A stretch of DNA of 64,000 bases, taken from contig CM114271.1 of assembly GCA_050084515.1 (NCBI GenBank), positions 18,600,001 to 18,664,000 of the forward strand, given 5' to 3'. How positions within the stretch are numbered: position 1 is the first letter of the stretch; the number at the start of each line of letters is the position of its first letter. The stretch comes from Blasia pusilla. Lineage: Eukaryota. A program made the position numbers and the translations under genes. The notes below the pieces were generated by a model that worked only from the letters and a program-made list of their open reading frames with translations, was not told where the DNA came from and ran no database searches. Below are positions 29,441-63,662 of this stretch, one piece after another.

Positions 29441-30805
29441 TGTGACGTCTTTTAGGATAGATCGATGAGATCTAGTAGAGCGCCTTCGTGAGTAGTGAAG
29501 GACAGGCTCAGTAGGTGGAGGATGACCTGTTGAGACCCCGGGAAACCTCAAAGAGCAGGTTTCCCCTTCGTTTGGCTCATTTGGAGCCATATTGTGAAAC
29601 TTATAATTTTAGGTAAATACGATTTTGAGTATATGATCGACTTTTTATTTTTTGTAAGTGGCCCTTGATCTCCTACATCAGGTCAAGAGCCAAGGAGGTG
29701 ACTTGGGAAAATAGATTACCATGGAGAGAGCTTGGGAGAGGGAAGGGGTATACCTCAAGGAGAGAGAGTTTGAGAGCTCATTCTCTCTTTGTTGAACCTC
29801 TTGGCATGAGGCGGCGGAGCTATGGTCCCTTGCCTTGTGAGTGTAATCCAAGCCTCTCATTAGGAGAGTGGGTTTGGTTTGACATGAGAGAGAGTGCACA
29901 ACTTTGAGAGCTATGGTGTGAGATGGTGTAGAGAGAGATTGGATCTTACTTTACAAAGAGAGAATGAGAGAATGAGAGAGCTTAATGGGGGAGCTCGCTA
30001 GTCACTCGCTGCTTTTGCAGGTTAGGGACAGTGTTCCCCGTTCAACGGCGCATGGGAGTGCTCACTGGAGCAATGGCTGCTTTGATTGTTCTTTGCATTT
30101 GTCGATTTTTCGTGTGGAAGAGTGGCACGCGGAAGCGCTGCCCAATTTCTAATAGGGATTGATTATAGGGGCGGGTTGCCCCATGCCAAAGCTCTCAAGA
30201 GCACCATGTAACTTGCTGATTTGAATTTTTACAGGTCTACATTTTCGTTGGGAGAAATCACCGCGGAAGCGCTGCCAAATTTTGTGTAGGAGAAAGAGAC
30301 ATTAGGCTTTACGATAGTCCCCATCAGTTTTTATTGGAATGTCCAAATCCAAATATTTTTTAAATTTTATCGTAGATCGTGAAGTTGTGCATGTTGTGCA
30401 AAAAATGGTGTACAATTTGGAGTTGCGAGTAAAAAGTTATGGCCAATCTTGCAAAATTTCCATTGCTAGGCAATCTTTAGGGTTAAATTGTTAAAACCCT
30501 AAACCAGCCGCCACGCGGGCGGCGGCCGTCACCGTCATAGTTATCGTCACCGGTCAACGGTCACCATCAATGATCAACCATCTGCGTCAACGGTCTGTCG
30601 TCACCATCAACGGTCAATCGTCACCGTCAACGGTTCACCGTCCACCGTCGGCCGTTGCGGTTGCCCAACGTTGCTCAGAGTTGCATTTGGTCGTTGTCCA
30701 CCCTTTGGTTGCCATTGCCGCCATTACGAAGTGGAGGGTCTTCCACGACCACCGTTGATTCTCTGACTTGCGCCGCCACCACGTACTTTGGTTTGCTGCC
30801 ATCAT
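29441..30805 (+). mobile_element. Truncated left end (A repeat plus 5' leader) of the DNMT-Gypsy family
   Basis: Starts TGTGACGTC; colinear with 45794-47140 and 57614-58925. Confidence 0.9.
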
Positions 30806-38455: not shown

Positions 38456-38702
38456 GAAAACCAACAACTCGGATAGCTTCGCTCCAGCGAAAGCCCCCAA
38501 AACACGTTCTTTCAAGGTCGTGATTCCCAGGCTACCACATCCGGGGCAACATCCTTGAACACGAGCAGCGAGCGCTTATGCTTCATGAGTACTCTCAGCA
38601 AGCTGTCTCCAGCCGCGACGAGAAAATCCTCGACGCCATCTTCCCCGCAGCAGTCAGGCGTCGCACTCGCGAGATGGCTTACACGAGAGTAGTGAGAGTT
38701 TC

Positions 38703-44600: not shown

Positions 44601-45793
44601 TTTCTCTTCTAGGTATTCATCAAGTAAAGTGACGTTGTGGGAAAATTCAAGAAATTGGTATCTAATTTTTTACTGACCTTCAAGTACGGGAGTGGATGAT
44701 TGAATGATTTTTTTAATCAAGACACACATAATGACTATTTCCCTATGACTTTGAGGTAAAAGATCCCTTATCCTCTTATCAATAAGATTCCGCTCCAAAG
44801 TGCCGTGCACTTGCTTCTCTTGAACGTCAATCTCTACTGTTGCGGAAACGTACCTTCAATAGATGATGCTCTCACTAATGTATGGCCGAGTTGATAACTC
44901 GGAGAGTTGGAAGGCTGATTCACTCATACCATACTAATGTGAGTGTGTTTGGATGCAGAACATCAAGCTCAACGTTCCTACTTCCCTACTTCCCAATACG
45001 GGTAAGTTTACCAAGACTTGGGACAAACTTTCTCAATATTTTAGGCACTTAAAACGACATTCACATGCCTAGCAGTACCAATTTTCCAATGGACCTAATG
45101 TAAACCCCTAACCGAGACCCACGTAAATGAGCCGCGGGTTGGAATCCAAGAGTGACCTCCGAAATCCACTTTATTGGACTTGGTTTGGGTTTCGAATCCC
45201 AACGCTAAACTCCCTATCTATTCTGTGTCCTTGGTTCTCCCTAGGACAGCCCAAAGTGGAGTTTGAGTCTTAACATTCTTGGAGACCTTCTCCCTTACTA
45301 GTAACTCAAGGGTTCTCTCGCCCCCCTAATCTTTGGGAAAAGACTCTCGGGTCCCTCTTTTTGGACGGATGGTTCTCAATGAGCCTCAACAACTCATATA
45401 AGGTTCACATTTCCATCCATGTTATGTGTGTAAAAGATCTTGAGGGTAGATTGTAAAATTAGTTGCTAAAAAAGCCGTGAATCCTCGAAAGTCCTCTCCA
45501 ATTATTCAAATAATTGGTCGCGAGCATAAACATCTAAAACTCAAGCTTGTCTTCAATGTGACTCTCCGAATCCTTTTCATCTAAATCAATCTTAATAAGA
45601 TCCACGTTTGGACCAAGTAGGTTAGAATCTTTATTATCAAGGACTTGTGAGTAATTTGAGTTACTTAACACCTCATCTAAATCATGACTATCTCCATAAA
45701 GTAATTTGGTTTCAAGGACCCCTTGGATAGCCATGAGAACTTCCTACCTTTCTATGATCTTTAATATTTTCTTTTTGATTTTTAGAGTGAGGT

Positions 45794-46309
45794 TGTCACG
45801 TCTTTTAGGATAAATCGGTGAGATCTAGTAGAGCGCCTTTGTGAGTAGTGGAGGATAGGCTCAATAAGTCAAGGATGACATGTTGAGGCCCCGGGAAACT
45901 TCAGAGCGTAGGTTTCCCCTTCGTTTCGGCTCATTTGGAGCCATATTGAAAAACTTACTATTTTAGGTAAGTAGCATTTTGAGTATATGATAAACTTTCT
46001 ATTTTTGTTAAGTGGCCCTTGACCTCATACACTAAGGCAAGAGCCAAGGAGGTGACTTGGGAGCATAGGTTACCATGGAGAGAGCTTGGGAGAGGGGAGG
46101 GGTATACCTCAAGGAGAGAGAGTTTGAGAGCTCATTCTCTCTTTGTTGAACCTCTTGGCATGAGGTGGCGGAGCTATGGTCTTGCTTGCCTTGAATGTGT
46201 AACCCAAGCCTCTCATTAGGAGAATGGGTTTGGTTTGACATTGAAAGAGACATGTGAGAGTGCACATATTTGAGTGCTATGGTGTTGAGAGAGATTGGAT
46301 CTTATTTTA
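45794..46309 (+). repeat. Repeat A1 (516 bp)
   Basis: Direct repeat of 55490-56005; homology stops at GATCTTATTTTA. Confidence 0.93.
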
Positions 46310-47898: not shown

Positions 47899-50400
47899 AT
47901 GAGGGCCATCACTGCGTCCTTTCGGGATTTTGAGAGGCAAGGTAGTGGACCTGAGAGTAGCTCTAGAGGGTTTACCCGGAGTGGTGCGAGGTTTCGAGGA
48001 TCTCCACATGAGGGACCACCTTCTACGTCATCTTCAGACAAGGAGGAGCATGTAGAGGAGTTGAGTAGTGCTTTGCCACTCACATTGAGTAGTCCTATTG
48101 CTTGGGCGTACGAGATGGGTGATCGGGGGAGAGGACAGCGTAGGTTCTCAGGTGCAGTAGGCATGATAGAGTTGCACGACTTCATCGCCGAGTTTAGGAG
48201 TTGGTGCAACTCACAGCGGGCTAGGAACTCTAGAGAGCTCAATCCGTTTACAGCATAGAATGGTATGTTCCAACAGTTAGAGGGGGCACCCATGGACAAT
48301 TACCATGAGTTCTCCCATAGGTATGCCTAGGAGATTGAGGCATGGCGACTCTACTATGACCCACACTATGTGTCATAGACGGAGCCGTTCCCAAATGAGG
48401 AGGAGTCATGAGAGGCTACTTCCTCTTCCACTAGTGATGTTTTAGGAGGGATCACTCGCACTGGAGCAGTTGCACCGTCTAGTCGGTTTTGTCCCAGGTT
48501 CAACCCCGTGGTTGAGTTCTTCATTGAGTTGAGGGCGAGCTACCAAGTGGTACGGACAGAGAAGTTGCGGAGCATCCATGACTTCCAGACGCGCCCGTGT
48601 GAGAGTTTGGGTGAGGCTTACACTCGCTTGCGCCGGTTGATCAACGTCACTCAGGGGGTGACAGAGGCTCAAGCTATCCAGTCATGGTACGCGATGTTGG
48701 ACCAGACCCTACGAGCATGGGTGCGGAAGAGGGTGCTTCTTATGAACACCTCCCCTACGTTGAGAGATGTTTTTAGGACCGCCGAGAACATTGAGTGCAA
48801 CATGATGGAGGAGATCGTAGCCACCATGGGTTCTAGGCGAGAGCAGTCACGATTTTCTACACCACCAATGCAGTAATGTGGACTCCGAGATAGGTCGACT
48901 ATGGCACCACGAGCTTAGGAAGGATACCAGAAGGCTGTGCCACAAAGACCTACGCCTTCATATGCGGCTCAATAATAGCCGCCTATGATTACTTGTTGGT
49001 CATGTGGTGGAGCCCATCATCAGTGTGATTGCACTTGTCAGGGTCATGGACGTGTGCCTTAACATGGAGGAGGACATGGTGCTGCACCAAGAGGTTATTA
49101 GTGTTACTATTGTCAGAGGTATGGTCACACACGCGCTCGGTGTTTCAGTTTACACCCTGAGTTACGTCCAGACCGAGGGCTAGAGAGGGCACGAGAGCAA
49201 GTAGCCGGTCCGGGTGGGCTAGAGATCGTGCACCTGGTGGTCGTATTGGGGGACGAGGAGCAAGAGTTGCCCAATAGGGTGGTGGAGTTGCCCGTGGAGG
49301 AGGTAGAGTCCCACTAGCTAGACGCATCGAGGGAGATGCCAAGGGTGAAGTAGGGATGGCTGCTTAGATACAAGAGCAGATTGCCGCTATAGCATTGAGG
49401 TTACGCGATGCCAGATCCATGGCATCGAGATCATATGGAGCAGCCAGAGATATGGAGTATCCTTGTTGGATGTGTGGGGTTGCCCACATGGAGGCTTCCG
49501 CAGTTCTGACGCGTGGAGCAGCCATAGAGTTGGCTCCACATCGAGGGGAAGCTAGGAAATAGACCAATCTCCCCAATCTTTCACGTTGTCCAAGGTGATG
49601 AGGACCCCATCGATGGGTCTTGATCAGAGTTCCCGGAGAGTTGGTGATGTTATTGGTGTGCAAGCACGAAGGGCAATGGGAGAAATGAGTGCAACGATTC
49701 CTATTGCTGATGCTAAGGAGGAGCATGTGTCGAGTACGATGTTGGGGGCGGCCACGATGGTGTACCGTACTCCGTTATTTTCTTCTTTTGATGTTATGAC
49801 ATTGGGAGGTATGCTACGCTATGCTATGTGAGCGAGGAGTTGGAGTTCCTGCATCACCTTCAGAGGTGATTGCAGAGGAGCTGATGGACCTGCCCTTGGA
49901 GCTGATGCTCGGGCCGTCCACGTCATATTCATGGCAGGCTGCGGTTGCTAGGATGGCGGAGATGCCCACTAGACCCGCGATAGAGCATGCCATGGCTTCT
50001 CCTAGTGTTGTGTTGCTAGATAATCTGGGAGAGGTCTTCCAGTTGGTGAGTCCAAAAGGTAGAGCTTTTAGTCCGCAGTGCGTCTTGTTGGATTCAAGAG
50101 CGCAACCCCTAATGTTGGGGAAAGCGTCATTCAGAGGATTGGGCTTGACAAGAGCCGATGTGGAGCATTGTCCATTCCGGATACAGACATCCTTGGATGG
50201 AACGAGTACCATATAATTTATCACCCGACATGAGGTTGTAGTGAGGATTTTCCCGGGACTTCCTATAGATGAGTCTGTGGTGCGAGCCAAGGCGATAGTG
50301 ACTAATGCAGAGTCCTACGACGTCTTGGTTGGTGGAGTAGTGTTATACCCGATGGGGTTTTCCCTGGATTACTGGGAGGAGTCAGCGTCCTATAGACCAA
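47899..50400 (+). pseudogene. gag (capsid-like plus two CCHC zinc knuckles) and aspartic protease, stop-riddled
   Basis: FQTRPCESLGEAYTRL (gag-like); CWSCGGAHHQCDC at ~48994; CYYCQRYGHTRARC at ~49102; VLLDSRAQ (LLDSGAQ in the minus copy at ~62550). Confidence 0.8.
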
Positions 50401-50803
50401 GATGGCATCCAAGTGATGGGCGCCTTAGCTCATTACCCATTCGATTCACAGCTGCAATGATCGAGCGACGGCCAAGAGAGATGGCGACCTTAGCAGCATT
50501 TAGCAATGCCATCACTTGGCCTAGTGATTTGATTAGGGAAATGTCCATACAGAGGATACTCCCATTTGTGACATTTCTATGCAAAGGAGTGTCATGGTAG
50601 CTGCATCAGTCTGTGGAGGAGACGTGCCGCTTTGGGGTTTGCCTGAGGAGCTTCGACGCTTAGCCATTGAGCATGAGCAGACCGCATGGAGCGAGACGTT
50701 TGCACCAAAGTGTGACAGGTCAAAGGAACCCCAAGTAAGCAGGAGTGCTACTATAACCCCTTTGGACACCACCCTGATTGTATGGTGGATCCCAGAGAAG
50801 GAT

Positions 50804-51750
50804 ATTCGGGTGTTGGATCTCTTTGGAGGGATCAGCACTGGGTTAGTTGTTATTTTGCAAGCTGGAGTGCGCGTGCAAGAGTACCTATATGTGGAGATTG
50901 ATGATGTTGCGAGGCGCGCTTCACTTCACCATGTGGCGCAGTTACGCCTCCGTTTTCCCGACTTGTTGTCTGCATCTGCCATTCTGGGTTACCAGAGTTC
51001 TCTACCGAGGGACATTTCATTGTTGGGGACGCATGACTTGGAGCGGGTAGGGACCATAGACTTGATCATTGTTGGTTGGCCATGTGAGGGCCAGTCAAGT
51101 GTTGGACTGGATAGTGGATTAGCTTACTCTCGGTCCATGTTATTTTGGGAGATGATGCGGATCTTGCAACACTTGCAGGAGCATCAATCTTGTCCTCCAA
51201 CATACATTGTAGAGAATGTACAGATTTTGGGCGATTCGAGGTCCCGTGTGGTGACAAGTGCACATCAAGTGAGCGCATGGATTGGCCTTGAAGTTTTGTT
51301 GGATGCGGCAAGTATGGATTCACGAGCACATCGCCCGCGTCTTTGGTGGACCAACTTGGTACCACACAAGGTATTGCACAGGGCATATGCGAGAGTGGAG
51401 CGCCCCTCGGATTTTTTGGTGGATTCTATATTGGATCCGGGCCGTCAATCACAGGCAGTGAGGCTAGATGATTGACCGCCGTTGACTATGGTCAACATGA
51501 TTTGTAGGCCACGGGAAGCGTGTCCTACATTGGTGAGTTCTCCCGCTTCCTATGCATTCAAGGACGCCGGACCTCGCTTGGTTTGGGATGACCAAGTACA
51601 GAGGTTGGTGGAGCCCAACGCCGATGAGCGAGAGCAAGCGATGGGATTCCCCACAGGAGTGACGGCAGTACCGCCACTATCAGAGGCATGACGACATCAT
51701 GTCTTAGGTCAGGCAATGGAGCTGAATTGCTTGACATGGATTTTTAGCTT
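50804..51750 (+). pseudogene. C5-cytosine DNA methyltransferase domain (DNMT3-like) within pol; single frame with two internal TGA codons
   Basis: Motif I IRVLDLFGGISTG; IV IDLIIVGWPCEG; VI YIVENV; VIII AHRPRLWWTNL; IX/X EREQAMGFPTGVT...HVLGQAM. Confidence 0.92.
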
Positions 51751-52081
51751 AGGAGTAGTTGAGCGACGTCGTTTGAGTATGCGAGAGATCACAATTGTTG
51801 CATTGGTGAGCCCCATGCCTATTGAGATGGTTAGGGCATTGGTTGGGGGACAGACCCAAGGAGATCGACACACCAGGGATGATCGGGAGAGACACCCTTG
51901 GACTTCTTGGGATATTTTGCAGGTATGCCAGAAGATGATAGCCATAGCATCGAGCATGGTTCCGGGTTTTGCACGTGGAGATGATAGTTCTATTGTCTGA
52001 GACGGGGTTGCACCATAGCAACCACTGACATCCGCGTCGGAGAGTCCTACCGTAGTCACGATGGAGACTTCAGAGCCAGAT

Positions 52082-55000
52082 TGAGTGCTTGGGTCCTACG
52101 ATATACCAAGGGAGCCTTGGTGTGCAACAAACAAAGGTAGAGGCTATTTCACGCATTCCACGCCCTATAGATGTGAGTCGAGTTCGTGCATTCATGGGAT
52201 TGGCAAACTTCTATCGACGATACGTCAAGGGTTTCAGTTTGATTTCAAAGCCGCTAACCTTGTTGACCAAGGTGGATCAAGAGTGGCATAGGGGGGATGA
52301 GCAGGAGAGAGCATTTCATATGCTCAAGGATAGATTGACGTCCGTGCACATATTGAGGAGACCGATCAGGGGGCATCCTTTCCAGTTGCATACCAATTGG
52401 AGCATGTTGGGGCTTGGAGCCATGCTCATCCAACATGACGATGATGGTAGAGAGTTCATGGTGGCTTATGCTAGTCGCTTGAACAATGCTACAGATTTCG
52501 CGACCCTCATAACCAAACAAGCGCCAAGCGGAACATCCGAACTCTAGCGAGCTCACGCTAGGATGGTTTGCGCTTTGGGAGTTAAGGAAACACAAGGGCA
52601 AGATGCGAGCGAGGTGAGCGTTTCGAGTGTTTCGTGTGTTGTGGTCATGACCAGGAAATCATAACCAAATGCGGTACTCAGACTTGAGAGAAGTCAAGTC
52701 TTGGAGGAGACGCGACCAAGGGGTGAAAACTAGACTTGAGACGTTGCAGCACTTGAGAGTTTCCGACTGTACTTTTGACCATAACTTTGACTCCCAAGAA
52801 GCGTTTGGGACAAATAAGATAGCATTGGAAAGCTTATGTCAAGTCAATTCTAGCGCACCAAAGACCTTTGCAAACACTTGTGCAAAGGATGAGATATGGG
52901 CCAAAACCAAACGTAAGAGGAGTCGGGTTGAGGGCCAAAAAGAGGGGCCCGGTTGGTCTTTCCCAAAGGTAGGGGGACCCCGGAGTTTCCTAAAAGTACA
53001 AGTAAGGGGGAAGGTCTCCAAGAGTTCTTGGGACTCGAAGCCCACTTTGGGCGCCGCGAGGCGATCCAAGGGCACGGAACGGATCATGAGTTTGGTGGTG
53101 GGCTTTAAAACCCAAACCAAGTTCAATAGAGGGATTTCGGAGATCCCTATTGGATTCCAACTTGCGACTCATATTATTGAGTCTCGGTTAGGGGCTCATG
53201 CCAAGTTTGTTGGACAATTGGGACCGCTAGGCGCGCAAATGCCGTTTCAGGTGCCTAGACTAACCAGAAAGTTTGTCCCAAGTCTCTGAAGGCTTGCCCG
53301 TGTAGGGAACCTAGGAATGAGGGAAGGTTGAGCTTGATAAGATGCCCAGTTGAGGATTCGGTGGGTTGAAAGACCGCTTGATCCAAAGCCAGACTAACGT
53401 GAGTGCATTTGGGTGCAGGTTGGCGATGAGAGCGTGTCCTACTAAACGTACGCTTCTGCAACACTAAGATTGACGTTCAAGGAGAGTAGGCGCACGACAA
53501 TAGAGGCGAATTATAACTCGTATGAGGGTGAGTGCTTGGCTGCAGTGTGGGCTATTGCACATTTCACATGTTATCTATTTGGAAATCCCTTTACCATCAT
53601 TACTGATTATCAGCCACTTAAGTGGTTGATGGCATCCGACAAGCTAAGAGGAAAGCTTGCAAGGTGGGCTCTTTTGTTGCAGGAGTATGACTTCCAAGTG
53701 GTACATCGACCTGGGAGGCTCAACCAAGATGCAAATGGTTTGAGCTGTAACCCATGCCCGAGTCAGCAAGATACGACTAGAGCTCGTTGGCATGGTGAGA
53801 GTGATGAGGAGTTGGTGCCAAGATGGCATACGTTAGCCTATTTGGGCTTGTTGGCTATGGAGAGCCAGATTTCTAGGACTTTGATGGTGAGGTCTAATGG
53901 AGAGTCCTTAGATACTGAGGCCGGTGAGAAGACAACAGGTGGCCAAGACATTCACGGTGATGGAGTGGTCTTGGAGTACCTGCATACTCGCAGCGTCGCG
54001 AGCACAGTCGGTGCTAGAGAGTGGGATCAGATCCTACAATGAGCCAAACGGTTTCGGTGGGAGGGCACATATATGTTGTGAGTGTGGGAGGATGGTAGAG
54101 TGGATGTAGTGTCTCATCCTTCATAGAGAGCACGTTTGGTGCGTCATTCCCACGAGGAGTTTGGTCATTTTGGAGTGAAACGGACGTACAGCTTGCTCCA
54201 GATTCAGTATTGGTGGCGAGGCGTACAGACTGACGTTTAGCAATTTGTTGCCAGATGCATGGTGTGTGATCAAGTCCGAGTATCATTCAATGCTCCGACT
54301 CCATAGTTGCATCCACTTCCAATCATGGGTTTAGGTTATAGATGGAGTTTGGATTTTGCAGGAACTTTGCTTTTGAAGGAGCGTCATAGTCCTTATGTGT
54401 TGATGATGGTCCTGCACTTATCGAAGTGGATAGAATTGGTTGCATTGTCTGACAAAGCAAGTGAGGGAGTAGCGTATGCCTTCCTAGATTGAGTGTTGAG
54501 TCATTACTGCGCACCAATGGAGGTGTTGACAGACAAGGGTACAGAGTTCTACAGGGAGTTTTAGGCCTTCTTTATCAGGCACTTATCGACCACCGGACTA
54601 CTTTCCGAGATCATCCTGAGGAGGATGGACTAGCGGAGCGGGTTGTGCAGACAATGAAGAGAGGACCACGCAAGTATGGCTTGCAGAGAGGTCACCTAGG
54701 AGATTGGGACCTTCAGAGAGTGATGTCCATGGCGTTTGAGAACTTGGCGATTGCGTAACATCGGGATACCTTGAGATATGCAACTTTTCAGGAAGATGGT
54801 TATTGACCTACTATCCAGAGGTTTCATCATGAGGACTATGTCTACTTGCAGCAGATGGCATCCACGAGGTTGGATGTGACTACAAGGTGCATCATATTGA
54901 GAGTGCGTGAGGTTTTGCCATCCAGTGTTCTCTTATTGGAAGGACACGATGGTATGGTTTGGAAGGACCATGTGCGTAATTATGCGCCATGTCATCTTCC

Positions 55001-55196
55001 AAACATTGACGATGTATTTGATCCAAGCTTAGCAATAGTTCTTGCAGGCTTGCGGTCTATGTTGTGTGGTTCTGCCCGTGGTGCAGCCACTATTATAGTC
55101 TGTGATGAGTGTTCGAAAGAATGGCATATGGCATATTTGATGCCACCTCTCACTAGGGTTCCTCAGGGAAGATGGATGTATCCCACATATACATAA
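52082..55196 (+). pseudogene. RT C-terminal tail, RNase H (interrupted), Gypsy integrase (HHCC plus core) and C-terminal PHD finger
   Basis: VRAFMGLANFYRRYVKGFS; VAYASR..EANYNSYEGECLAAVWA; ARWALLLQEYDF; HEEFGHFGVKRTY...CMVC; WSLDFAG; GLAERVVQTMK; LCGSARGAATIIVCDECSKEWH...VPQGRW. Confidence 0.9.
52496..53499 (+). mobile_element. 1004-bp solo-LTR-like insertion splitting RNase H
   Basis: T(T)TCGCGACC...GCGCACGACA ends; flanks ACAGA/ATAGA; removing it restores ASRLNNATEANY. Confidence 0.85.
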
Positions 55197-55375
55197 AGAA
55201 GGTAGTTCTACATTCTGACTTGTGTCTGTGAAATGGATGACAAAAAGGTGACTAACAATGGGGCCACATGAGCACCCGACCTTCTTGCTCTTAGTGTCTC
55301 AGAGATGTATGTCATGGTAAGTAGGGATAGATGGCTATGTAGAGTTAAAGGGACCTAACCACCAGCTAGGGGGGA

Positions 55376-55487
55376 AATTGGAGATATTTTGGTACTTCTT
55401 GTCTCGTTGTTTGGATGCCATGAGTTAGCATGGGATTGTGCGTGCTTGTGTGTGTGTCTAGTGACAGCGATGTGTATGCGCACGATA
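55376..55487 (+). repeat. Repeat X1 (112 bp), preceded by polypurine tract AGGGGGGAAA (55368-55377)
   Basis: AATTGGAGATATTTTGG...GCGCACGATA; direct repeat of 56005-56133. Confidence 0.92.
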
Positions 55488-55489
55488 AT

Positions 55490-56005
55490 TGTCACATCTT
55501 TTAGGCTACATTAGTGAGATCTAGTAGAGTGCCTTTGTGAGTAGTGGATGACATGTTGAGTAGGTCGAGGATGCCATGCTGAGGCCCCAGAAAACCTCAG
55601 AGAGCAGTTTTTCCCTTCATTTTGTCTCATTTGGAGCCATATTGAGAAACTTGCTAATTTAGGTAAGCACCCTTTTGAATATATGATCAACTTTCTATTT
55701 TTGTTAAGTGACCCTTGACCTCCTACATCAGGGCAAGAGCCAAGGAGGTGACTTGAAAGCATAGGTTACCATGGAGAGAGCTTGGGAGAGGGGAGGGATA
55801 TACCTCAAGGAGAGACAGCCTGAGAGCTCATTCTCTTTTTGTTGAACCTCTTGGCATGAGGCGGCGGAGTTATGGTCTTACTTGCCTTGTGTGTGTAATC
55901 CAAGCCTCTCATTAGGAGAGTGGGTTTGGTTTGATATAGAGAGAGACATGTGAGAGTGCACACATTTGAGAGCTATGGTGTTGAGAGAGATTGGATCTTA
56001 TTTTA
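55490..56005 (+). repeat. Repeat A2 (516 bp)
   Basis: Direct repeat of 45794-46309, sandwiched between X1 and X2. Confidence 0.93.
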
Positions 56006-56133
56006 ATTGGAGATATTTTGGTATTTCTTGTCTCATTGTTTGGATGCCATGAGTTAGCATGGGATTGTGCTTGTTTGTGTGTGTGTTTGGTGACAGCGAT
56101 GTATGTTGTGTAGCGATGTGTATGCGCACGACA
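56005..56133 (+). repeat. Repeat X2 (129 bp), right terminus of the element
   Basis: AATTGGAGATATTTTGG...GCGCACGACA, followed by the TSD AGGT. Confidence 0.92.
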
Positions 56134-57613
56134 AGGTTTAAATCTTTTACACATGAAAATTACTACCTCTTTGATGTTGCTACAACCTTGAGAGTTCACA
56201 AGAAGGATTTGCAAGCCTAGCTAAGGGCACATCTTAATCGAATATTCCTATGATCTCTAGTATAGCTCACACCCATATTGTTACCATAAGAAATCCTATA
56301 TCGAGGATTAGAGTCCAAATTAGAGGTTCACACTATCTGTGGCAGAAATTTAAAGAGTGGAGATCATGAATGTAGGACCACTAACCCTACATATTTTTAT
56401 AACCTGAAAGGCATGCTATACTACATGCTTACATTTGTGTCATGCATCAACTTTGTAAAACATTAGTCTAGTGTGTTGTAGAAGATGGTGTTCAGCATGG
56501 CATACTCTCATTACTAATCTACATCCAAATACACTCACATTATCCACAATTTGGATCGACCAACCTTCCGTCTCCCAAATTTAGGTCTTGGATAAATCCT
56601 CAAGCTCAACAAATCTAGACGGGATGCAATACCAACCTAACCCCACATTCACAAAGAGATGCAAATCATTCAACACTTGAGACAAACTTCCTTAATATTC
56701 TAGGAACATGAAACGAAGCCAACGCACGTGGAAGCCCCAATTGACCCATGGACATAAAACAAGTCTCCAATCGAAATTCCGTACATGAACCTCAGATAAT
56801 GGTGGTAAAAAATTAGGGTCCAAAAGTGGACAATTTTAGCTTGACTTGGTATGAAAACCCACAATGCAAACCTCTCAATCCCTCGCTCAATCCATCCCGT
56901 GCTTTTAGTTCAACCCCCATGGTTCTTAAGATGGGGTTGAGATTCCAAAATCCATTGGAGGCCATCCCCTTTATGTACAATTCTAGAGAAATCCAACCGC
57001 CCCCCCCTTCCAGAAATTCTTCTTGGACCACACCTTGTGTCCCTTAACCCAAACTAGACCTTTCATGTATTAGAACCAACTTCTCATAAGCGTTCGAACG
57101 TCGTTTTACTCATCCCAAACGCATCTTGGATCTAGCCGCTATGACCTGGAAAGAAGAGAACTCCCAAATGCTAGATCAAATTGATAAACTTTAGGTCTCA
57201 ATCCAAAATAATGCTCCTTGATAACTTGTGAGATTAGGACCAACAATCTAGGAAAAGACAAAGGGTCGCGTGAGGGATAGTATCATCCAAACTCAAAATG
57301 AACCTTACTTGCAAACCCAATCAACAATTCTAAATATTGCATTGTATCCCTTATATTCAAGAAGACTTGTAATAAAGTCCATATTGATGCTTTGCTTAGA
57401 GACAAGCTTATTTCTAACAGTTCTACCAGTGACATTTTAGAACTTGCCTCTTGCTTAATGTCGCAATATGTTAAAGAATATGATTATTTTGGGTGGTGGT
57501 TATCGATAAGGAATGTAGATATTTTATCTTGGAGATTCTGTCTATATCTTCATCATACAGTACCGATAAAATTGGGTGTGGCGGTAGGACGCAACTTTTT
57601 GTATGAACGAGAT

Positions 57614-60600
57614 TGTCACGACTCTTGGGATAGATCGGTGGGATCTAGCAGAGCGTTTGCACGAGTAGTGGAGGATAGGCCTAGGAGGTTGAGGATGACA
57701 TGTTGAAGCCCCGAGATACCTGAGAGAGCATGTTTCCCCTTCGTTTCGGCTCATTTGGAGCCAAATAGAGAAACTTACTATTTCGGGTAAGTTTCCATGT
57801 TGGAGATAGTTGACTTTACACTCTAGGAAGTGGCACTTGACCCGATACAACACGTCAAGAGCCAAGGAGGTGACCTGCGAGCATAGGTTACCGTTGAGAG
57901 GGCTTGGGAGAGGGAAGGGGGTATACCTCTAAGAGAGAGAGCTTGAGAGCTCATTCTCTCTTTGTTGAACCTCTTGGCATAAGGCGGCGGAGCTATGGTG
58001 AATTGCCTTGTGAGTGTAATCCAAGCCTCTCATTAGGAGAGTGGGTTTGGTTTGACATGAGAGAGAGTGCACACCTTTGAGAGCTATGGTGTGAGATGGT
58101 GTAGAGAGAGATTGGATCTTACTTTACAAAGAGAGAATGAGAGAGTAAGAGAGCTTCATGGGGGAGCTCGCTGGTCACTCACTATTTCCACAAGTTGAAG
58201 ACCCTGTTCCCCGTTCAATGGCTCATGCGAGTGCTCACCAGAGCAAGGGCTGCTTTGATTCTTCTTTGCATTTGCCGATTTTTCGTGTGGAAGAGTGGCG
58301 CGCGGAAGCGTTGCCCAATTTCGGATAGGGATTGATTATGGGGGCGAGTTTCCCAATGCCGGTGCTCTCGAGAGCACCATGTAGTTTGCTGATTTGTATT
58401 TTTATAGGTTTTATATTTTCGTTGGGAGAGATCAGCACGGAAGTGCTGCCAAATTTTGTGTAGGAGAAAGAGACATTGGGCTTTACAACAGTCCTTGTCA
58501 ATTTTTATTGGAATTTCCGATTCTAAATATTTTTTGATGCTATTGTAGATCATAAAGTTGTACACGTTTTGCAATAAACAATGCATAATTTGGAGTTGCG
58601 AGCCAAAATTTATGATCAATCTTGCAAAACTTCCATTGCTAGGCGATTTTTAAGGGTAAATTGTTCAGACCCTAAACCAGCCGCCACACCGGCAGCGGCC
58701 TTCGCCATCATAGTCACCATCAACGGTACGCCGTCGATGGTCAACCGTCACTCTCACATGACAGCCATCACCATCAATGGTCAACTGTAACCGTCAACAG
58801 TCCACCGTCCGTTGTCCACCTTTAGTTGCCATTGCCGCCATTACGGAGTGGAGGGTCTTCCACGACGTTCGTTGATTCTCTAACTTGCGTCGCCACCACA
58901 TACTTTGTTTTGGCCGCCACTGTCATTGCAATTTCATCATCAACCAATAATGGCAAATGACCTCTATTCATGGTGTTTGAGTTTTGATTTCATGCTGCTA
59001 TGTTGTGATTAGTAGCCGCTCGACGACGATCGAGTACCGTGCCATGACACCCGTAGTCGCAACGCGCCGCCAATTGTTGCGTCGTGCCACTCGTGGCCAC
59101 ACCACACTGTCTTGATCATGGAACCTCTCCTTCACTAAAGAGCAGAGCATGTGAATTGCTGATTAAGGAGGGTATGCAGCCGAATGCCGCACCCCATTCC
59201 CGAGTGTCGTGTTGTTTGTAGCCGTTCCGTGCCGCCAGTGCCGCACCCGAGCGCTCGACCTGCACCGCACATCGAGGAGGTTGAGCAATATTAGTACCAG
59301 AGGAGTACGACTTGCTGATTGGAGTAGTTGTCTTCACGATCAAGTTGGGGTTGAGATTTTCTGTTGCTGAGGAGCGACATCGATATGTGTTCAGGTTATC
59401 CATTCTGGTCCTTTGCCCTCCACATGTGAGGAATTCTGGGATTTGGGTAGTTTATTTGGGGATATTGGGTTGTATGGATGTTGAGAGCATCATTCATGTA
59501 TGTGGTTTAAAGGACATAGACGTGTGTGGGATGTCTAGAGTTGAGGGTAGGTTTTCGATGAGATGATAGCCTGGTCGATTTGCCGCACCACGCCGCGTGT
59601 TGCCGCACGTTACACGTCTTGAGGAGGGAGAGTGTAGATCGAGTGCCACATGTTTGGGATGAGTGATTGAGGGATTACTTGCAAGGTTGAGAGTGATCAT
59701 GTGAGAGGGACACGAGAGTCATCACGGCGTCCGTTTGGGACTTTGAGAGGCGAGGAGATGAACCCGAGAGTAACTCTAGAGGTTTTACGCGGAGAGGCAC
59801 GAGGTTCCGAGGGTGTCCACGTGAGGGACCACCTCGATCTCCTTCTGTGTCATCGTCAGAGGAGGGAGAGGGTGTAAAGGAGTTTTTGAGCACATCGCCA
59901 TACATTGTGAGTGGTCCTACCAGTTGGGCGTACGAGATGGACAACCGGGATAGAGGACCGCGCAAGTTTACAAGTGCAGTAGGCACGATTGAGTTGCACG
60001 ATTTCATAGCAGAGTTTAGGAGTTGGTGCGACTCCCAACGGACCAGGAACTCTAGAGAGTTCAACCCGTTTACAGCATGGAACGGAATGTTCCAGCATTT
60101 AGAGGGGGCGCCCATGGACGATTACCATGAGTTCTCTCAGAAATATGCACGTGAGATCGAGGCGTGGAGGCTCTACTATGACCCACATTATGTCACATGG
60201 ACGGAGCCGTTCCTAGATGAGGAGGAGGAGTCAGGAGAGGCTACTTCCTTGATTGGCATATGAGCACGTGCAGACCACGTGGAGCGAGGCATTTGCACTA
60301 GAGCGTGATGGGTCTGAGAAACCTGAGGTAGGAGGGAGTGCTACGATGACACCCTTGGATACCACACCTGTTGTGTGGTGTATCCCGGAGGAGGGTATTT
60401 GAGTGTTAGATCTCTTTGGAGGGATTAGCACCGGATTAGTTGTTGTTTTGCAGGCAAGAGTGCGAGTGCAGCAGTACCTATATGTGGAGAGTAATGATGT
60501 TGTGAGGCGCGTCTCACTACGACATGTGGTGCAGTTATGCCTACGTTTTCCCGACTTATTTTCTGCGTCCGCGATACAGGGGTACCAGAGTTCCCTACCG

Positions 60601-60730
60601 AGGGATATTTCGTTGTTGGGGGCGCAAGACTTAGAGCGACTAGGGACCATTGATTTGGTCATTGTCGGTTGCACATGTGAGGGCACGTCAAGTGCTGGAC
60701 GAGGTTGCGGGTTGGCTAACACTCGGTCCA
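57614..60730 (+). mobile_element. Second, internally deleted copy of the DNMT-Gypsy family (A, leader, 5' gag, jump to DNMT N-half)
   Basis: Starts TGTCACGAC; colinear with 45794-48425; at ~60250 it jumps to the homologue of ~50660; VLDLFGGISTG...IDLVIVGCTCEG. Confidence 0.9.
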
Positions 60731-63662
60731 CGCTCGATGTTGTAGCTATCATCTCTTGGCGTACGTACAAAACGTCCCAAGAAGTTCAAGGATGTCTCTC
60801 TCAATCTCCCCTGGTGTGTCAATCTCCTCGGGTCTTGATCCCACCCACTACCTCCACCGTCTCGGTAGGCATGGGGCTCACCAACGCAACCACTGTGATC
60901 TGTCGCGATCTCATCCGACGCTGCTCAACCACTCCCAAGCTGAAGATCCATGTCTAGCAGTTCAGGTCCATTGCCTGATCCAAGACATGGCGTCATGATG
61001 CCTCAAATACTAACAGTACTATCGTCACTCATGTGGGAAATCCCATCGCCCACTCTCTCTTGTTGGCGTTGGGCTCCACCAACCTCTAAACCTGGTCATC
61101 CCAAACCAAGCCAGGATCGGCCTCCTTGTATGCATAGGAAGTGGGAAAACTCACTTGGGAAACCGCCTACTGCCAACCCTATTAAACCCTAACAAGTGGT
61201 TGATCATCGTGCCTCACCGCTTTTGTGAGTTTAACTGGATCGATCCAAAATGGAATCCACTAACAAATGGGAGGGCGCTCCACTCTCGCATACGCCCTCC
61301 GTAACATCACATGGGGCACCAAGTTGGTCCACTGTAGATGCGGGAGATGGGCTCTAGAACCTACACTCGCCGCATCCAAGAACACTGTTGGGCTGATCCA
61401 GGCACACATCTGATGAGCACTCGTCACCACCAGTGACCTGGAGTCTCCTAAGATCGGCACATTCTCCAGAATGTAGGCTGGAGAACGAGACTGGTGCTCC
61501 TCCAACTACCATAAGACCCTGAACATCTCCCAAAACAACCTAGACCAAGTGTCAGCCAACCCGCAGCCTCGTCCAACACTCGATTGGCCCTCACATGGCC
61601 AACCGGCAATGACAAAATCAATAGTCCCTACCCGCTCTAAGTCTTGCGCCCCGAGCAACGAAATATCCCTCGGTAGGGAACTCTGGTACTCCTATACCGC
61701 GGACGCGGACAATAAGTCGGGAAAACATAGGCGTAATTGCGCCACATGTTGTAGTGAGACGCGCCTCGCAACATCATCACTCTCCACATACAGGTACTGA
61801 TGTACTCGCACTCCTGCCTCCAAAACATGAGCTAACCCGGTGCTTATCCCTCCAAAGAGATTTAACACCACACAATGGACAAGGGTGTCATCGTAGCACT
61901 CCTTGCTACCTCGGGTTTCTCAGACCCATCACGCTCCGCTGCAAATGCCTTGCTCACGCAGTGTGCACGTGCTCATCTGCCAATCATCGAGGCTCCTCGG
62001 TCGAGCCCCATAGCGGCACCTCTCCTCCACAGAATGATGCGGCTACCATAAAACTCCTCTCCATAGAAATGTCAAGAACGGGGTTATCCTCTGCATGGAC
62101 ATGTCCCTCAATCAAATCACTAGGCCAAGTGATGGCACTGCTAAATGCTACTAAGGTCACCATCTCTCCTGGCCGTTGCTTGATCACTGCACCTGTGAAT
62201 CAAATGGGTAGTGAGCTAAGGTGCCCATCACCTGACTACCATCCTGGTTTGTAGGACGCTCACTCCTCCCAGTAATCCAGGGAAAACCCCATCGGGTATA
62301 ACATTGCTCTACCAACCAAGACATCGTAGGACTCTACATCACTCACTATCGCCTTGGCTCGTGCCACGGACTCATCTGTAAGATGTCCCGGGCGAATCCT
62401 CACCACGACCTCATGTCGGGTGATAAACTGTGTGGTACTCGCTCCACCCAAGGATGTCTGTATCCGGAATGGACAACGCTCTACATCGGCTCTTGTCAAG
62501 CCCAATCCTCTTAATGACACTTTCCCCAACATCAGGGGTTGCGCTCCTGAATCCAACAAGATGCGTTGCGGACTAAAAGCTCTACCTTTGGGACTCACCA
62601 ACTCAAAGACCGCTCCTCGGTTATCTAGCAACACAATACCATAAGAAGCCATGGCAAACTCTATCGCGGGTCTAGCAGGCATCTCTGCCATCCTAGCAAC
62701 CGCAGCCTACCATGAATCTAACATGGACGGCCCGAGCATCCGCTCCAAGGGCAGGTCCATCACCTCCTCTGCAATCACCTCTGAACGTGATGCAGGAACT
62801 CCAACTCCGCGCTCACATAGTGAAGCAGCTAGCCGAAAAGCCTCAGCATGCGCACGCCCCAACGTCATAACATCAAAAGCAAAAAATAAAGGAGTGCAAT
62901 ACACAACGGTGGCCACCCCCAACAACGTGCTTGACACATGCCCCTCCTGAGCATCAACAATAGGAGTCATCGTACTCGCTTCTCCCATCGCCCTCCGTGC
63001 CTGCACACCAACAACATCACCAACTCTAGAGGAACTTTGATGAGGACCCATCGATGGGGTCCTCATCGCTTCGGACAACGTGAAAGACTGAAGAAGCCTA
63101 GTCTATTTTCTGGTTTCCCCTCGCTGTGGATCCAACTCTAAGGCTGCTCCACGTGTCACAACTACGGCGGCCTCCATCTAGGAAACCCCACACATCCAAC
63201 CACGATCCTCCAAATCTTAGGCTGCTCCATATGATGTCGATGGCATCGATCCAACATCAGGTAACCTCAATGCCATACCGGAAATCTGCTCCTATAGCTG
63301 TTGTATCTGAGCAGCCATCCCAACCTCACGCTTGGTGTCTCCCTCGGCGCGTCTAGGTGGTGGTACTCTACCTCCTCCACGGGTAGCTCCACCACTATGT
63401 CGGATAACTCGAGCTCCTTGTCCCCCAACGGGACTACCTGGTGCACGATCTCTAGGCCCACTCGGACCAGCTGCTCACTGTGGTGCCCTCTCTGGCCCTC
63501 GGTTCGGACGTAACTCAAGATGTAAACTAAAACACCTAGCACGTGTATGACCATACGTCTGACTATAGTCACACACATAACCTCCTAGTGCAACACCATC
63601 TCCTCCTCCATGTTGAGGCACACGTCCATGACCGTGACGAGTGCAATCGCGTTGATGATGGA
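60730..63662 (-). mobile_element. Inverted third copy: gag knuckles, protease, DNMT
   Basis: Minus strand CDYSQTYGHTRARC, RILLDSGAQ, IAGWPCEGQS, YILENV, AHLPHLQWTNL; homologous to ~49015-51960. Confidence 0.9.

Follow-up and report, generated by a model that had tools for sequence, protein, structure and literature searches.

Plants silence transposons mainly by cytosine methylation, which makes it a paradox for a transposon to bring along a de novo methyltransferase of its own. The locus studied here poses that paradox in a window of 64,000 nt from Blasia pusilla (the whole stretch of DNA that was analysed, the coordinates of which are used throughout), where a cytosine methyltransferase (DNMT) domain lies inside a retrotransposon. 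What kind of enzyme is it, which element carries it, has selection maintained it, and what might it do for the element?

Identity of the methyltransferase domain

The DNMT3-like C5 cytosine methyltransferase domain was located at 50537..51760 (features are on the forward strand unless marked otherwise), where translation gave 408 codons in a single frame with exactly two stops, both TGA. It belongs to the element copy labelled copy A, in which it is a pseudogene. Motifs I, IV (PC), VI (ENV), VIII (RxR), IX and X followed in canonical, non-rearranged order, with LFGGISTG at 50819-50842, GWPCEG at 51074-51091, ENV at 51212-51220, AHRPRLWWTN at 51326-51355, NADEREQAMGFP at 51617-51652 and VLGQAMELN at 51701-51727. 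The first-pass annotation had reported ordered C5 methyltransferase motifs in one frame with two TGAs, and the translation and motif coordinates bore this out. Its interval (50804-51750) includes these motifs, but the domain begins further upstream, with the conserved N-terminal part running from about 50537. The frame is broken only by the two TGAs within the domain, as had been claimed, but a third in-frame TGA is found in the tail behind it (51998-52000).

At the first TGA (51473..51475) the homologous codon was CAA in copy C of the window (described below), AGG in the related locus L002 and TTG in L001. At the second (51689..51691) it was TCA in both copy C and L002. With its frame broken by these two codons, copy A cannot make the enzyme. 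A CGA origin was considered for both stops and was rejected for the second, since copy C and L002 have TCA there. The first may have arisen from CGA, judging from CAA in copy C and arginine in liverworts.

The Pfam DNA_methylase profile (PF00145), named as a check in the first-pass annotation, matched the copy A domain with an E value of 5.6e-10 (39.6 bits against a cut-off of 22). When the domain was compared with PDB chains using phmmer, DNMT3A was the best match (7.7e-13) and DNMT3A, 3B and 3C made up the first 29 among the 36 matches listed; DRM2 followed at 9e-4. The Pfam and phmmer matches both lie far outside what chance would produce. A profile search against solved structures gave DNMT3A at 1.2e-16, DNMT3B at 1e-13, NtDRM at 2e-8, DNMT2 at 3e-5 and M.HhaI at 2e-4. 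DRM chains ranged from 2e-8 to 5e-5 in this search, and no DNMT1 or CMT chain was among the matches listed at 0.01 or better. An AlphaFold model of ORF2 from the intact relative L001 (pLDDT 84.1) had DNMT3A (6f57_D) as its top Foldseek match (E 2.1e-19, TMt 0.84), all the matches listed were DNMT3A, B or C, and the structural alignment with human DNMT3A gave about 21% identity. The catalytic cysteine was invariant in 38 of 38 aligned relatives, and ENV and RxR were nearly so. PF00145 was the sole Pfam family in the 408-residue read-through, PWWP and ADD reader domains being absent. The ranking against solved structures, by sequence and by predicted fold, thus supports a DNMT3-type catalytic domain alone, in agreement with the DNMT3-type signatures noted by the first-pass annotation. 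Separately, an ESM Atlas feature search with the domain placed it nearest to clusters of phage and bacterial C5 methylases (score 0.96), a result uninformative as to origin.

Layout of copy A and the other copies in the window

Copy A extends from 45793 to 56134 and comprises gag, protease, DNMT, RNase H, integrase and a PHD finger, the RT core having been deleted. Gag, protease and integrase were assigned by tblastn with proteins of relatives, as Pfam detected none of the three in the decayed window ORFs (six of ten ORFs had no family). The gag region (48112..49218) was recovered with residues 9-377 of the Marchantia protein P0038 and with the Sphagnum protein P0051, and it is followed by several frame changes up to 49807. 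In the family, gag includes a zf-CCHC domain (L001 ORF1; P0138, P0075 and P0069). The aspartic protease region (49818..50534) was identified with P0038 residues 550-788 and from ORF translations. At the active site copy A has DSR where copy C has DSG, and Pfam Asp_protease_2/gag-asp_proteas was found in the corresponding part of P0075, P0138 and P0069. About 46% of the family DNA reads (918/1975) had one extra base after 50534, which points to a frame-shifting 1-nt deletion in copy A.

Behind the DNMT lies the ORF1 tail (51761..52015), which includes the TGA at 51998-52000, private to this copy, and was matched by P0038 up to residue 1254. The homologous tail of L001 is predicted to be disordered (residues 355-438, pLDDT under 50). 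The head of ORF2 (52019..52081), homologous to the head of L001 ORF3, is preserved for its first 21 or so codons and ends at the breakpoint of the RT deletion. The next match begins at residue 268 of L001 ORF3, so that about 250 codons with the RT catalytic domain have been lost. At 52081, 1130 DNA reads departed from the window and continued into what appears to be the next part of ORF2. The first-pass annotation had taken the DNMT for retrotransposon cargo situated between protease and RT; this is upheld by the tblastn map and by relatives with the same order, although the RT core itself is missing from copy A.

The RT thumb/connection and the first part of RNase H are at 52068..52496 (Pfam RT_RNaseH_2, E 3.1e-14; L001 ORF3 residues 268-410, 71% identity). 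The RNase H is interrupted by a foreign repeat of about 1 kb (52493..53501), probably the solo LTR of a different element. It is delimited by read junctions, in that hundreds of DNA reads, and RNA reads as well, joined 52486-52492 directly to 53500-53504. An inverted related copy of the insert lies at 44962-45364, and reads from other insert copies continued into a sequence at 53499 that resembles a tRNA primer site and that we take to be one. The second part of RNase H followed at 53470..54078 (Pfam RT_RNaseH, E 4.8e-20, and tblastn). The DDE-type integrase, with frame changes, was mapped to 53944..54713 using P0052 residues 1233-1489 and residues 1114-1240 of P0051; family members carry Integrase_H2C2 and rve by Pfam. 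The C-terminal PHD finger region (54711..55193) was 66% identical to residues 448-608 of the Marchantia protein P0030. Its Pfam match in copy A (E 3.6e-4, 20.9 bits) is under the cut-off of 24, and that of the relative P0052 reached 1.3e-10.

The ends of copy A are of the form A ... B-A-B and not LTR ... LTR. The 5′ terminal repeat A1 (45793..46309) was 88.8% identical over 517 nt to A2 (55489..56005). Repeat B1 (55376..55488), which stands directly 3′ of a conserved purine run (AGGGGGG) also present in L041 and L069, was 93.9% identical over 98 nt to B2 (56005..56134), the 3′ end of the copy, which has a 17-nt internal duplication. The order A-coding-B-A-B was shared by copy A, L041 and L069; the B pair was not found in L027 and no clear B pair was seen in L014. 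In the compared flanks of three elements there was no convincing primer-binding site or target-site duplication. Copy A is dead and old, and the window copy is a fossil without function.

Three further copies were detected. Copy B (57613..60730) consists of repeat A and the start of gag, jumps to a partial DNMT (60261-60730) and is truncated; it was 78-81% identical to copy A by blastn and was also mapped by tblastn. Copy C (60728..63661, reverse strand) adjoins copy B head to head and retains gag, protease and DNMT (61868-60945) with the tail, its blastn match to A 49014-51959 having 79.9% identity, again with tblastn matches. Copy D (29441..30795) includes only repeat A and about 840 nt of 5′ internal sequence (81.6% identity to A 45794-47127). 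The DNMT is thus carried by copies A, B and C, all three of them pseudogenes. Two further DNMT copies had been noted in the first-pass annotation and both were found, the second within the longer minus-strand copy (63661-60728). Its description of the genome as MOM1-bearing was not supported: PHD, chromo, SNF2, Helicase_C and DUF1087 domains were found in the neighbouring remodeler, a set that we take to be the make-up of CHD subfamily II, unlike MOM1.

The element family and its conserved stop codon

The order gag-PR-DNMT was also found in relatives from Marchantia polymorpha, Calypogeia fissa, Sphagnum, Closterium and Klebsormidium nitens. In P0069, CCHC, aspartic protease, DNA_methylase, RVT_1, RNase H and integrase occur within one ORF of 2188 residues, and in L001 a single frame (321-6809) with only two stops includes CCHC, DNMT and RVT_1-RNaseH-integrase. 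Gag, protease, RT, RNase H and integrase are in Ty3/gypsy order, with the DNMT inserted between protease and RT. Phage_integrase had no match in any protein scanned, the family having rve and Integrase_H2C2 instead. At an E value of 1e-30 or better, 390 representative clusters matched the DNMT. The best 150 representatives in the DNMT profile search were of the PR-DNMT-RT type, of the RT-RH-DNMT-INT type or bare DNMT fragments.

In a tree of 83 DNMT domains, a branch with SH-aLRT support of 99 parted 31 PR-DNMT-RT rows from 37 RT-RH-DNMT-INT rows. The window copy clustered with Marchantia and Calypogeia in a starred 17-row clade. K. nitens GAQ93235.1 (P0138) and four Closterium proteins, all with CCHC, protease and DNMT, fell on the window's side of the same branch. 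The element family is thus the land-plant branch of the KnitGypsy-Dnmt3 lineage, of Ty3/gypsy type, and to the explanation as a whole we give a probability of about 0.8. We are highly confident of the identity and layout of the window element.

The first Gypsy-DNMT3 element to be described was KnitGypsy-Dnmt3 of the alga K. nitens (de Mendoza et al. 2018, Nat Commun 9:1341, PMC5890265, from the available text). The first-pass annotation had suggested that the range of such elements may extend to land plants, and for the family this is supported by the relatives in M. polymorpha, C. fissa and Sphagnum. In the literature we found no named DNMT-bearing retrotransposon of a land plant, though supplementary tables may list some. 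None is named in the available portions of PMC5890265, PMC12344493, PMC6453930, PMC9516144, PMC10952607, PMC5784723, PMC8616336 or a 2026 preprint (10.64898/2026.05.21.726589); two papers, in the same portions, mention “streptophytes” in general without naming land plants.

The family is high-copy and sense-transcribed in the host species. Its 9-kb internal part attracted 105,305 of 12.4 million WGS reads (0.85%). Coverage in all three RNA runs was strand-biased; in run X15, for instance, the two strands stood at 129.5 and 6.6 in bin 54188-54490. The RNA signal was family-wide, and only 6, 2 and 4 reads matched copy A at 99% or more.

Gammaretroviruses express Gag-Pol by stop-codon readthrough, and a stop in a comparable position was found here. 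The DNMT forms the end of ORF1, and an in-frame stop with a conserved context (TAG CAA CCA, 52016..52024, in frame with the DNMT) separates it from RT-RH-INT. A homologous stop was present in the window and in all 22 related loci, which represent few subfamilies and hence few independent lineages behind the conservation. It was TAG in 16 of the 22 and TAA in six, always followed by CAA; the extended context was CAA CCN/CTA in 22 of 22 loci examined. ORF2 was in frame in 20 of 24 loci. The Marchantia and Calypogeia proteins terminate 82-88 residues past the LNCLTW motif. The type I readthrough motif is UAG-CARYYA according to the available text of PMC5382211, and its full CARYYA part was found in four of 23 sequences (the window, L001, L078 and L079), the other 19 having CAA CCC or CAA CCT. 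In two deeper members of the clade, P0069 and P0207, DNMT and RT are not separated by a stop, and readthrough is therefore not family-wide. On the conservation of the codon and its context, synthesis of Pol by readthrough seems slightly the better bet. That the enzyme is part of the Gag-protease product and precedes a conserved leaky-type stop offers a concrete hypothesis on its dosage.

Selection on the domain and its possible role

Between copies A and C the dN/dS of the DNMT was 0.16 (out-of-frame controls 1.0 and 2.0) and between A and B it was 0.24, with controls ranging overall from 0.96 to 2.0. Purifying selection thus acted on the DNMT during the divergence of the lineages that led to copies A and C. 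Between subfamilies dS was saturated (above 1.4), and those ratios are only qualitative. CpG observed/expected was 0.70 in copy A, 0.51 in the window, 0.93 in a host exon and 0.28 in L001, and by this measure copy A gave no clear signal of methylation-driven decay. The read comparison did, however, reveal an excess of sites with A or T in the window and G or C in the family (617 against 261 sites).

The dN/dS ratios bear on the possibility that the element recently captured a piece of a host DNMT3 gene, which would now drift neutrally as the DNMT segment with no role in the life cycle of the element. The first-pass annotation had associated such a capture with a dN/dS near 1, and the values of 0.16 and 0.24 are far from the controls. 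A neutral fragment would fit the pseudogene state of all three window copies, and also one group of metagenome copies, the L002-like group, whose dN/dS of 0.62 was no lower than its out-of-frame controls (0.49 and 0.57) and which, by these ratios, is in neutral decay. However, the domain occupies the same place in elements from Marchantia, Calypogeia, Sphagnum, Closterium and Klebsormidium, its catalytic cysteine is invariant in the 38 relatives, and it recurs in the 390 clusters mentioned above. We therefore regard neutral capture as highly improbable. A maintained domain could still serve in another way than by methylating DNA, for instance by binding nucleic acids, as a structural part of the particle, or as an RNA methyltransferase acting like DNMT2 on the genomic RNA or the tRNA primer. 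The DNMT does share the Gag-PR product with the RNA-packaging part, next to which it lies, and EC replaces PC before the catalytic cysteine in Closterium and in the chlorophyte sister lineage. The K. nitens domain produced no DNA methylation in yeast, but human DNMT3B was likewise negative in that test (PMC5890265, in the text available). The catalytic cysteine, ENV, RxR and the residues of motifs IX and X, which a pure scaffold would not need, are kept family-wide, and both sequence and fold are nearest to the DNA-acting DNMT3A, B and C (1.2e-16, against 3e-5 for DNMT2). A non-DNA role is thus unlikely.

It is also conceivable that the enzyme acts on host chromatin, in the neighbourhood of the integration site or across the genome, steered by the PHD finger of the integrase, and that it marks safe landing sites or damps host responses. 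Streptophyte and chlorophyte lineages alike pair the DNMT with a C-terminal PHD finger on the integrase, and with about 0.85% of WGS reads and with transcription the enzyme could matter genome-wide. Effects on chromatin at the insertion site were raised in the 2018 paper, but the methylome of K. nitens is ordinary and plant-like despite its elements (both from the available sections of PMC5890265). Moreover, DNMT and PHD belong to separate translation products, ORF1 and ORF2. We consider a host-chromatin role improbable, to about the same degree as a non-DNA role.

The mechanism that we propose is instead one of self-methylation. The DNMT would form the C-terminal end of a Gag-PR-DNMT polyprotein and would thus be made in Gag-like amounts, and RT-RH-INT-PHD would be made only on readthrough of the leaky UAG (context CAA CCA), the route taken by gammaretroviruses and tobamoviruses. 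Once released by cleavage, the methyltransferase would be carried in the particle with the nascent cDNA, and de novo methylation of the cDNA or of the new insertion would leave new copies already marked on their entry into the genome. That methylation of its own cDNA or insertion is the selected function is a tentative proposal, to which we give clearly less than even odds. A broader scenario is doubtful when taken in full: a single gypsy lineage with a PHD integrase may have had a DNMT3-type enzyme since before land plants, perhaps since the green-plant ancestor, with one move of the domain within the polyprotein, and its bryophyte elements may still be active and abundant, with a leaky UAG behind an enzyme that is made in Gag-like amounts and pre-methylates their cDNA. 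If bryophyte elements do pre-methylate themselves, bryophyte transposons would write some of their de novo methylation on their own, and Marchantia would provide a tractable system for studying the purpose of retrotransposon-encoded DNMTs. The only plant-lineage case that we found in print comes from an alga that does not lend itself to manipulation, and the yeast test of its enzyme had no clear outcome. With the same lineage in land plants, including the genetic model M. polymorpha, the question becomes testable in a tractable plant.

Comparison with known systems

The animal host enzymes DNMT3A, 3B and 3C and plant DNMT3 have their catalytic fold and motif order in common with the window domain, which is missing PWWP and ADD; unlike DRM, the window domain is not rearranged. 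As in the type I readthrough of tobamovirus, an in-frame UAG stands ahead of the polymerase ORF, and the context in the window and L001 fits CARYYA (PMC5382211, available text). Unlike readthrough systems, the upstream product here adds a protease and a methyltransferase to Gag, and most related copies have CAA CCC.

SymbioDIRS-Dnmt3 of Symbiodinium also has a DNMT3-type domain in a retrotransposon polyprotein and A-coding-B-A-B repeats, and its de novo CG methylation was shown in yeast (PMC5890265, as excerpted). It is a DIRS element with a tyrosine recombinase, whereas the window family has a DDE integrase and a zinc-knuckle gag, and the likeness of the family to DIRS-like elements is limited to the repeat arrangement.

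Gypsy elements of the chlorophytes Chlamydomonas eustigma, Haematococcus lacustris and Cymbomonas tetramitiformis have the order RT-RH-DNMT-INT-PHD. They share with the window family a related DNMT (about 32-38% identity), a DDE integrase and a C-terminal PHD finger. However, their DNMT lies between RNase H and integrase and not between protease and RT, they are set apart by one well-supported branch, and their motif IV reads EC and not PC. On the DNMT sequences, this type is the sister lineage of the window family, and with the DNMT elsewhere in its polyprotein it provides a concrete hypothesis on origin. We found no paper describing the chlorophyte type as such. The available part of a preprint (10.64898/2026.05.21.726589) describes Cymbomonas elements in which pol ends 3′ with a DNMT that is placed next to DNMT4; these are possibly the same.

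The closest known system is KnitGypsy-Dnmt3, which likewise has a non-rearranged DNMT3-type domain in a gypsy-type polyprotein with a DDE integrase. The arrangement A-coding-B-A-B described for it (PMC5890265, available text) was found here in copy A, L041 and L069, and the Ka/Ks under 0.2 given in the same text is comparable to the 0.16-0.24 obtained here, both indicating purifying selection. We infer that GAQ93235.1, the K. nitens protein that groups with the window family, is a published KnitGypsy-Dnmt3 copy. For its domain, negative for methylation in yeast, the authors called the result inconclusive (PMC5890265, same sections). Elements are very abundant in the window's host, whereas the 2018 paper stresses their low copy number in K. 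nitens, and the UAG conserved between DNMT and RT in the bryophyte clade is not mentioned in the portions of PMC5890265 available. The hosts also differ, and here include land plants (Marchantia, Calypogeia and Sphagnum) and the Zygnematophyceae (Closterium).

The methyltransferase domain and its element

The segment at 50537-51760 (+) of the window is a DNMT3-like methyltransferase domain. Its translation gave 408 codons in one frame, with two TGAs (51473 and 51689) as the sole interruptions, and all the C5 methyltransferase motifs reported in the first-pass annotation were recovered on the forward strand in canonical order: LFGGISTG (50819-50842), GWPCEG (51074-51091), ENV (51212-51220), AHRPRLWWTN (51326-51355), NADEREQAMGFP (51617-51652) and VLGQAMELN (51701-51727). 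The Pfam check proposed there was positive, DNA_methylase (E 5.6e-10, 39.6 bits against a cut-off of 22) being the only family matched in this read-through. With the domain as a query against all PDB chains, DNMT3A, 3B and 3C formed the best 29 of the 36 matches listed, from E 7.7e-13 down, while DRM2 was found at 9e-4. A profile built from 14 relatives ranked the solved structures similarly: DNMT3A (E 1.2e-16), DNMT3B (1e-13), tobacco DRM (2e-8), DNMT2 (3e-5) and M.HhaI (2e-4). A structure model was made for ORF2 of L001, an intact natural relative from a metagenome contig, using an alignment of 38 sequences. Mean pLDDT was 84.1, exceeding 90 at residues 5-354, and the last 84 residues were disordered. 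Every Foldseek match listed in PDB was a DNMT3A/B/C chain (top match 6f57_D, E 2.1e-19, TM 0.84 on the target).

The domain belongs to copy A, a forward-strand element bounded at 45793-56134 by its repeats and by tblastn with relatives. Repeat A1 (45793-46309) is followed by gag (48112-49218, located by tblastn with relatives), the protease (49818-50534, active-site motif DSR, as opposed to DSG in copy C) and the DNMT with its tail (50537-52015). Behind the tail lie a TAG at 52016 and some 21 codons that open the next ORF, after which a deletion has removed roughly residues 21-267 of the corresponding L001 ORF3, the entire RVT_1 domain. The RT thumb and RNase H (52068-52496 and 53470-54078) are split by a foreign repeat of about 1 kb, and the integrase (53944-54713), a PHD finger region (54711-55193) and repeats B1 (55376-55488), A2 (55489-56005) and B2 (56005-56134) complete the element. 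The order of protease, DNMT, TAG and RT remnant agrees with the earlier placement of the DNMT as cargo between protease and RT. Since A1 and A2 are only 88.8% alike, the insertion is old.

Three family fragments were also found: copies B (57613-60730, +), C (63661-60728, -) and D (29441-30795, +). Copies B and C correspond to the DNMT-bearing copies first noticed near 60400-60730 (+) and 60950-61865 (-). They abut head to head within three bases (60728-60730), the break in each falling within the DNMT module or immediately after it. An inversion, an assembly join or a nested insertion may underlie this junction.

Elsewhere in the window, a long intron-rich host gene at 3841-22028 (+), possibly extending to about 26600, encodes PHD, chromo, SNF2-related, Helicase_C and DUF1087 ("CHD subfamily II") domains. 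The first-pass annotation had named MOM1, presumably of a different domain make-up, and the gene looks like a CHD3/PICKLE-type remodeler instead. An apparently intronless 538-codon open frame at 36956-38572 (-) matched the diphthamide synthesis protein family (PF01866, E 3.9e-109).

Relatives of the element

Word-index searches recovered 34 proteins of comparable length plus 17 that were longer, at no more than 58% identity. Those with names came exclusively from Calypogeia fissa, Marchantia polymorpha (10 of the 17 longer proteins) and Sphagnum, and one Marchantia protein (P0042) combined RVT_1, RNase H and DNA_methylase. Scanning metagenome contigs yielded 80 loci, mostly decayed. The L001 locus was a single frame (321-6809) with two stops only, encoding CCHC-gag and protease / DNMT / RVT_1, RNase H and integrase. 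This frame, the best preserved among the relatives, is strongly CpG-poor (observed/expected 0.28) despite having two stops in 2163 codons, a lower value than in the decayed window copies (0.66-0.82). Another public contig (L070:828-5789) carried a 1654-codon open frame with RVT_1, RNase H, DNA_methylase and integrase, in chlorophyte-type order.

In an exhaustive profile search, 6028 representatives scored E <=1e-3 and 390 scored E <=1e-30. Typing with our own domain queries covered 148 new proteins among the best 150 representatives: 17 were (gag)-PR-DNMT-(RT-RH-INT), type one; 81 were RT-RH-DNMT-INT-PHD, type two; and 50 were DNMT alone. Few proteins could be named; they include Closterium spp. 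and Klebsormidium nitens (GAQ93235.1) in type one, and Chlamydomonas eustigma, Haematococcus lacustris and Cymbomonas tetramitiformis in type two. In the K. nitens and Closterium proteins Pfam detected CCHC, Asp protease and DNA_methylase, and in P0069 it detected all domains within one 2188-residue ORF. Motif IV has Glu-Cys, not Pro-Cys, in chlorophyte type two elements and Closterium copies (P0052, P0231, P0075); bryophyte and Klebsormidium copies kept Pro-Cys.

The tree (IQ-TREE quick search, LG+G4, midpoint root) held 83 DNMT domains: all 29 full-length type one, 15 of 36 unassigned and 37 of 135 type two proteins, the window copy and L001. Incomplete domain matches kept Sphagnum and one Closterium protein out of it. 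A single branch (SH-aLRT 99) divided the two types with zero exceptions, and a starred clade of 17 rows united the window copy with Marchantia, Calypogeia and L001. From its relatives' domain order and its tree position, the window element therefore belongs to the streptophyte Gypsy-DNMT3 lineage.

The family in host reads

Raw host-species reads were mapped to 46310-55375 and counted if at least 85 letters in 100 were alike. The DNA run gave 105,305 such reads, 0.85% of the 12.4 million read. Being numerous and mostly less than 90% alike, they indicate a large and old family. An extra base after 50534 in 918 of 1975 reads reveals a private 1-nt deletion in copy A, and thus a change of frame between its protease and DNMT. 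At 52081, 1130 reads depart from the window into the apparent missing start of ORF2. The window has A/T where the reads have G/C at 617 sites and the reverse at 261, which fits C-to-T decay of copy A. In hundreds of reads 52486-52492 joins directly to 53500-53504, which marks the 1-kb insert as foreign to the family. The insert (52493-53501) has an inverted relative 7 kb upstream (44962-45364). Reads from its other copies continue into a sequence resembling a tRNA-Met primer-binding site, which makes the insert a probable solo LTR from a different retrotransposon family.

All three RNA runs covered the whole element with a strand bias of about 10-50 to 1; no comparable bias was seen in the DNA run over 46310-55375. 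Read by the stranded-library convention, these are sense transcripts. Only 6, 2 and 4 RNA reads were at least 99% like copy A, so other copies are transcribed, and copy A is a fossil of a living family. Each of the three RNA runs contains reads (7, 14 and 7) that skip 31 nt at 52186-52218, a skip absent from a 1% sample of the DNA reads. Candidate explanations are a small intron, a variant copy that the sample missed, and an alignment effect.

Selection, function and comparison with known systems

We computed dN/dS (Nei-Gojobori) on ungapped codon alignments, with two shifted frames as controls. The ratio was 0.16 for copies A and C (198 codons, dN 0.142, dS 0.859; shifted frames 1.03 and 2.01) and 0.24 for A and B (108 codons, dN 0.119, dS 0.487; 0.96 and 1.55). 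The closely related B and C gave 0.74 (108 codons, dN 0.122, dS 0.165; 0.46 and 0.93), as expected of post-insertion decay. Comparison with 30 metagenome copies gave ratios of 0.11-0.23, with dS saturated, and the L002-like group of metagenome loci had a median of 0.62, equal to controls. Together, these ratios show that the domain was constrained during lineage divergence and that inserted copies decay neutrally. A neutral captured fragment, for which a ratio near 1 had been named as the sign, is contradicted by 0.16 and 0.24 against 0.96-2.01 in shifted frames, and is very improbable.

In L001 the DNMT ORF closes at a TAG and RT-RH-INT continues in the same frame. The stop was present in all 22 loci with an alignable junction (16 TAG, 6 TAA), always followed by CAA and then CCA, CCC, CCT or CTA; the window reads TAG CAA CCA (52016-52024) in the DNMT frame. 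Of 24 loci, 20 keep ORF2 in the frame of ORF1; three have tail indels and one is ambiguous. Marchantia and Calypogeia proteins end at the same place, 82-88 residues past the LNCLTW motif. No stop lies between DNMT and RT in P0069 and P0207, deeper members of the clade. In the bryophyte clade, we infer from sequence, the methyltransferase would be part of the Gag-protease product and Pol would be made via readthrough.

Such a Gag-protease-DNMT layout would yield the enzyme in Gag-like amounts, and hence make it available inside the particle. Self-methylation of the cDNA or new insertion is, tentatively, the likeliest selected function (probability about 0.35). De Mendoza et al. (2018; PMC5890265) propose self-methylation of cDNA among other roles. 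They report that the dinoflagellate enzymes methylated CG sites de novo and that the Klebsormidium enzyme gave no signal, a result they term inconclusive because human DNMT3B was likewise negative. A non-catalytic or RNA-directed role of the domain appears unlikely to us, and we hold action on host chromatin around insertion sites to be equally doubtful.

This kind of element is already known. Among the literature passages covered, no paper was found naming a DNMT-bearing retrotransposon in a land plant, and two speak of "streptophytes" in general. Our analysis adds land-plant membership, abundance and transcription in the host, a putative leaky-stop layout and a chlorophyte sister type. The relatives of the element point to a land plant as its host. 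In plant viruses, UAG with CARYYA behind it serves as the type I readthrough signal (PMC5382211). A complete match to this signal is seen in the window, L001, L078 and L079; the remaining 19 sequences deviate in the last base. L041 and L069, two metagenome loci unrelated to each other, also have the repeat order A-coding-B-A-B of copy A, with the same purine run directly ahead of B1; L027 did not show this order. According to the figure legends in the 2018 paper (PMC5890265), SymbioDIRS-Dnmt3 has exactly this order, and the Klebsormidium element has "the same" repeat structure with gypsy domains.
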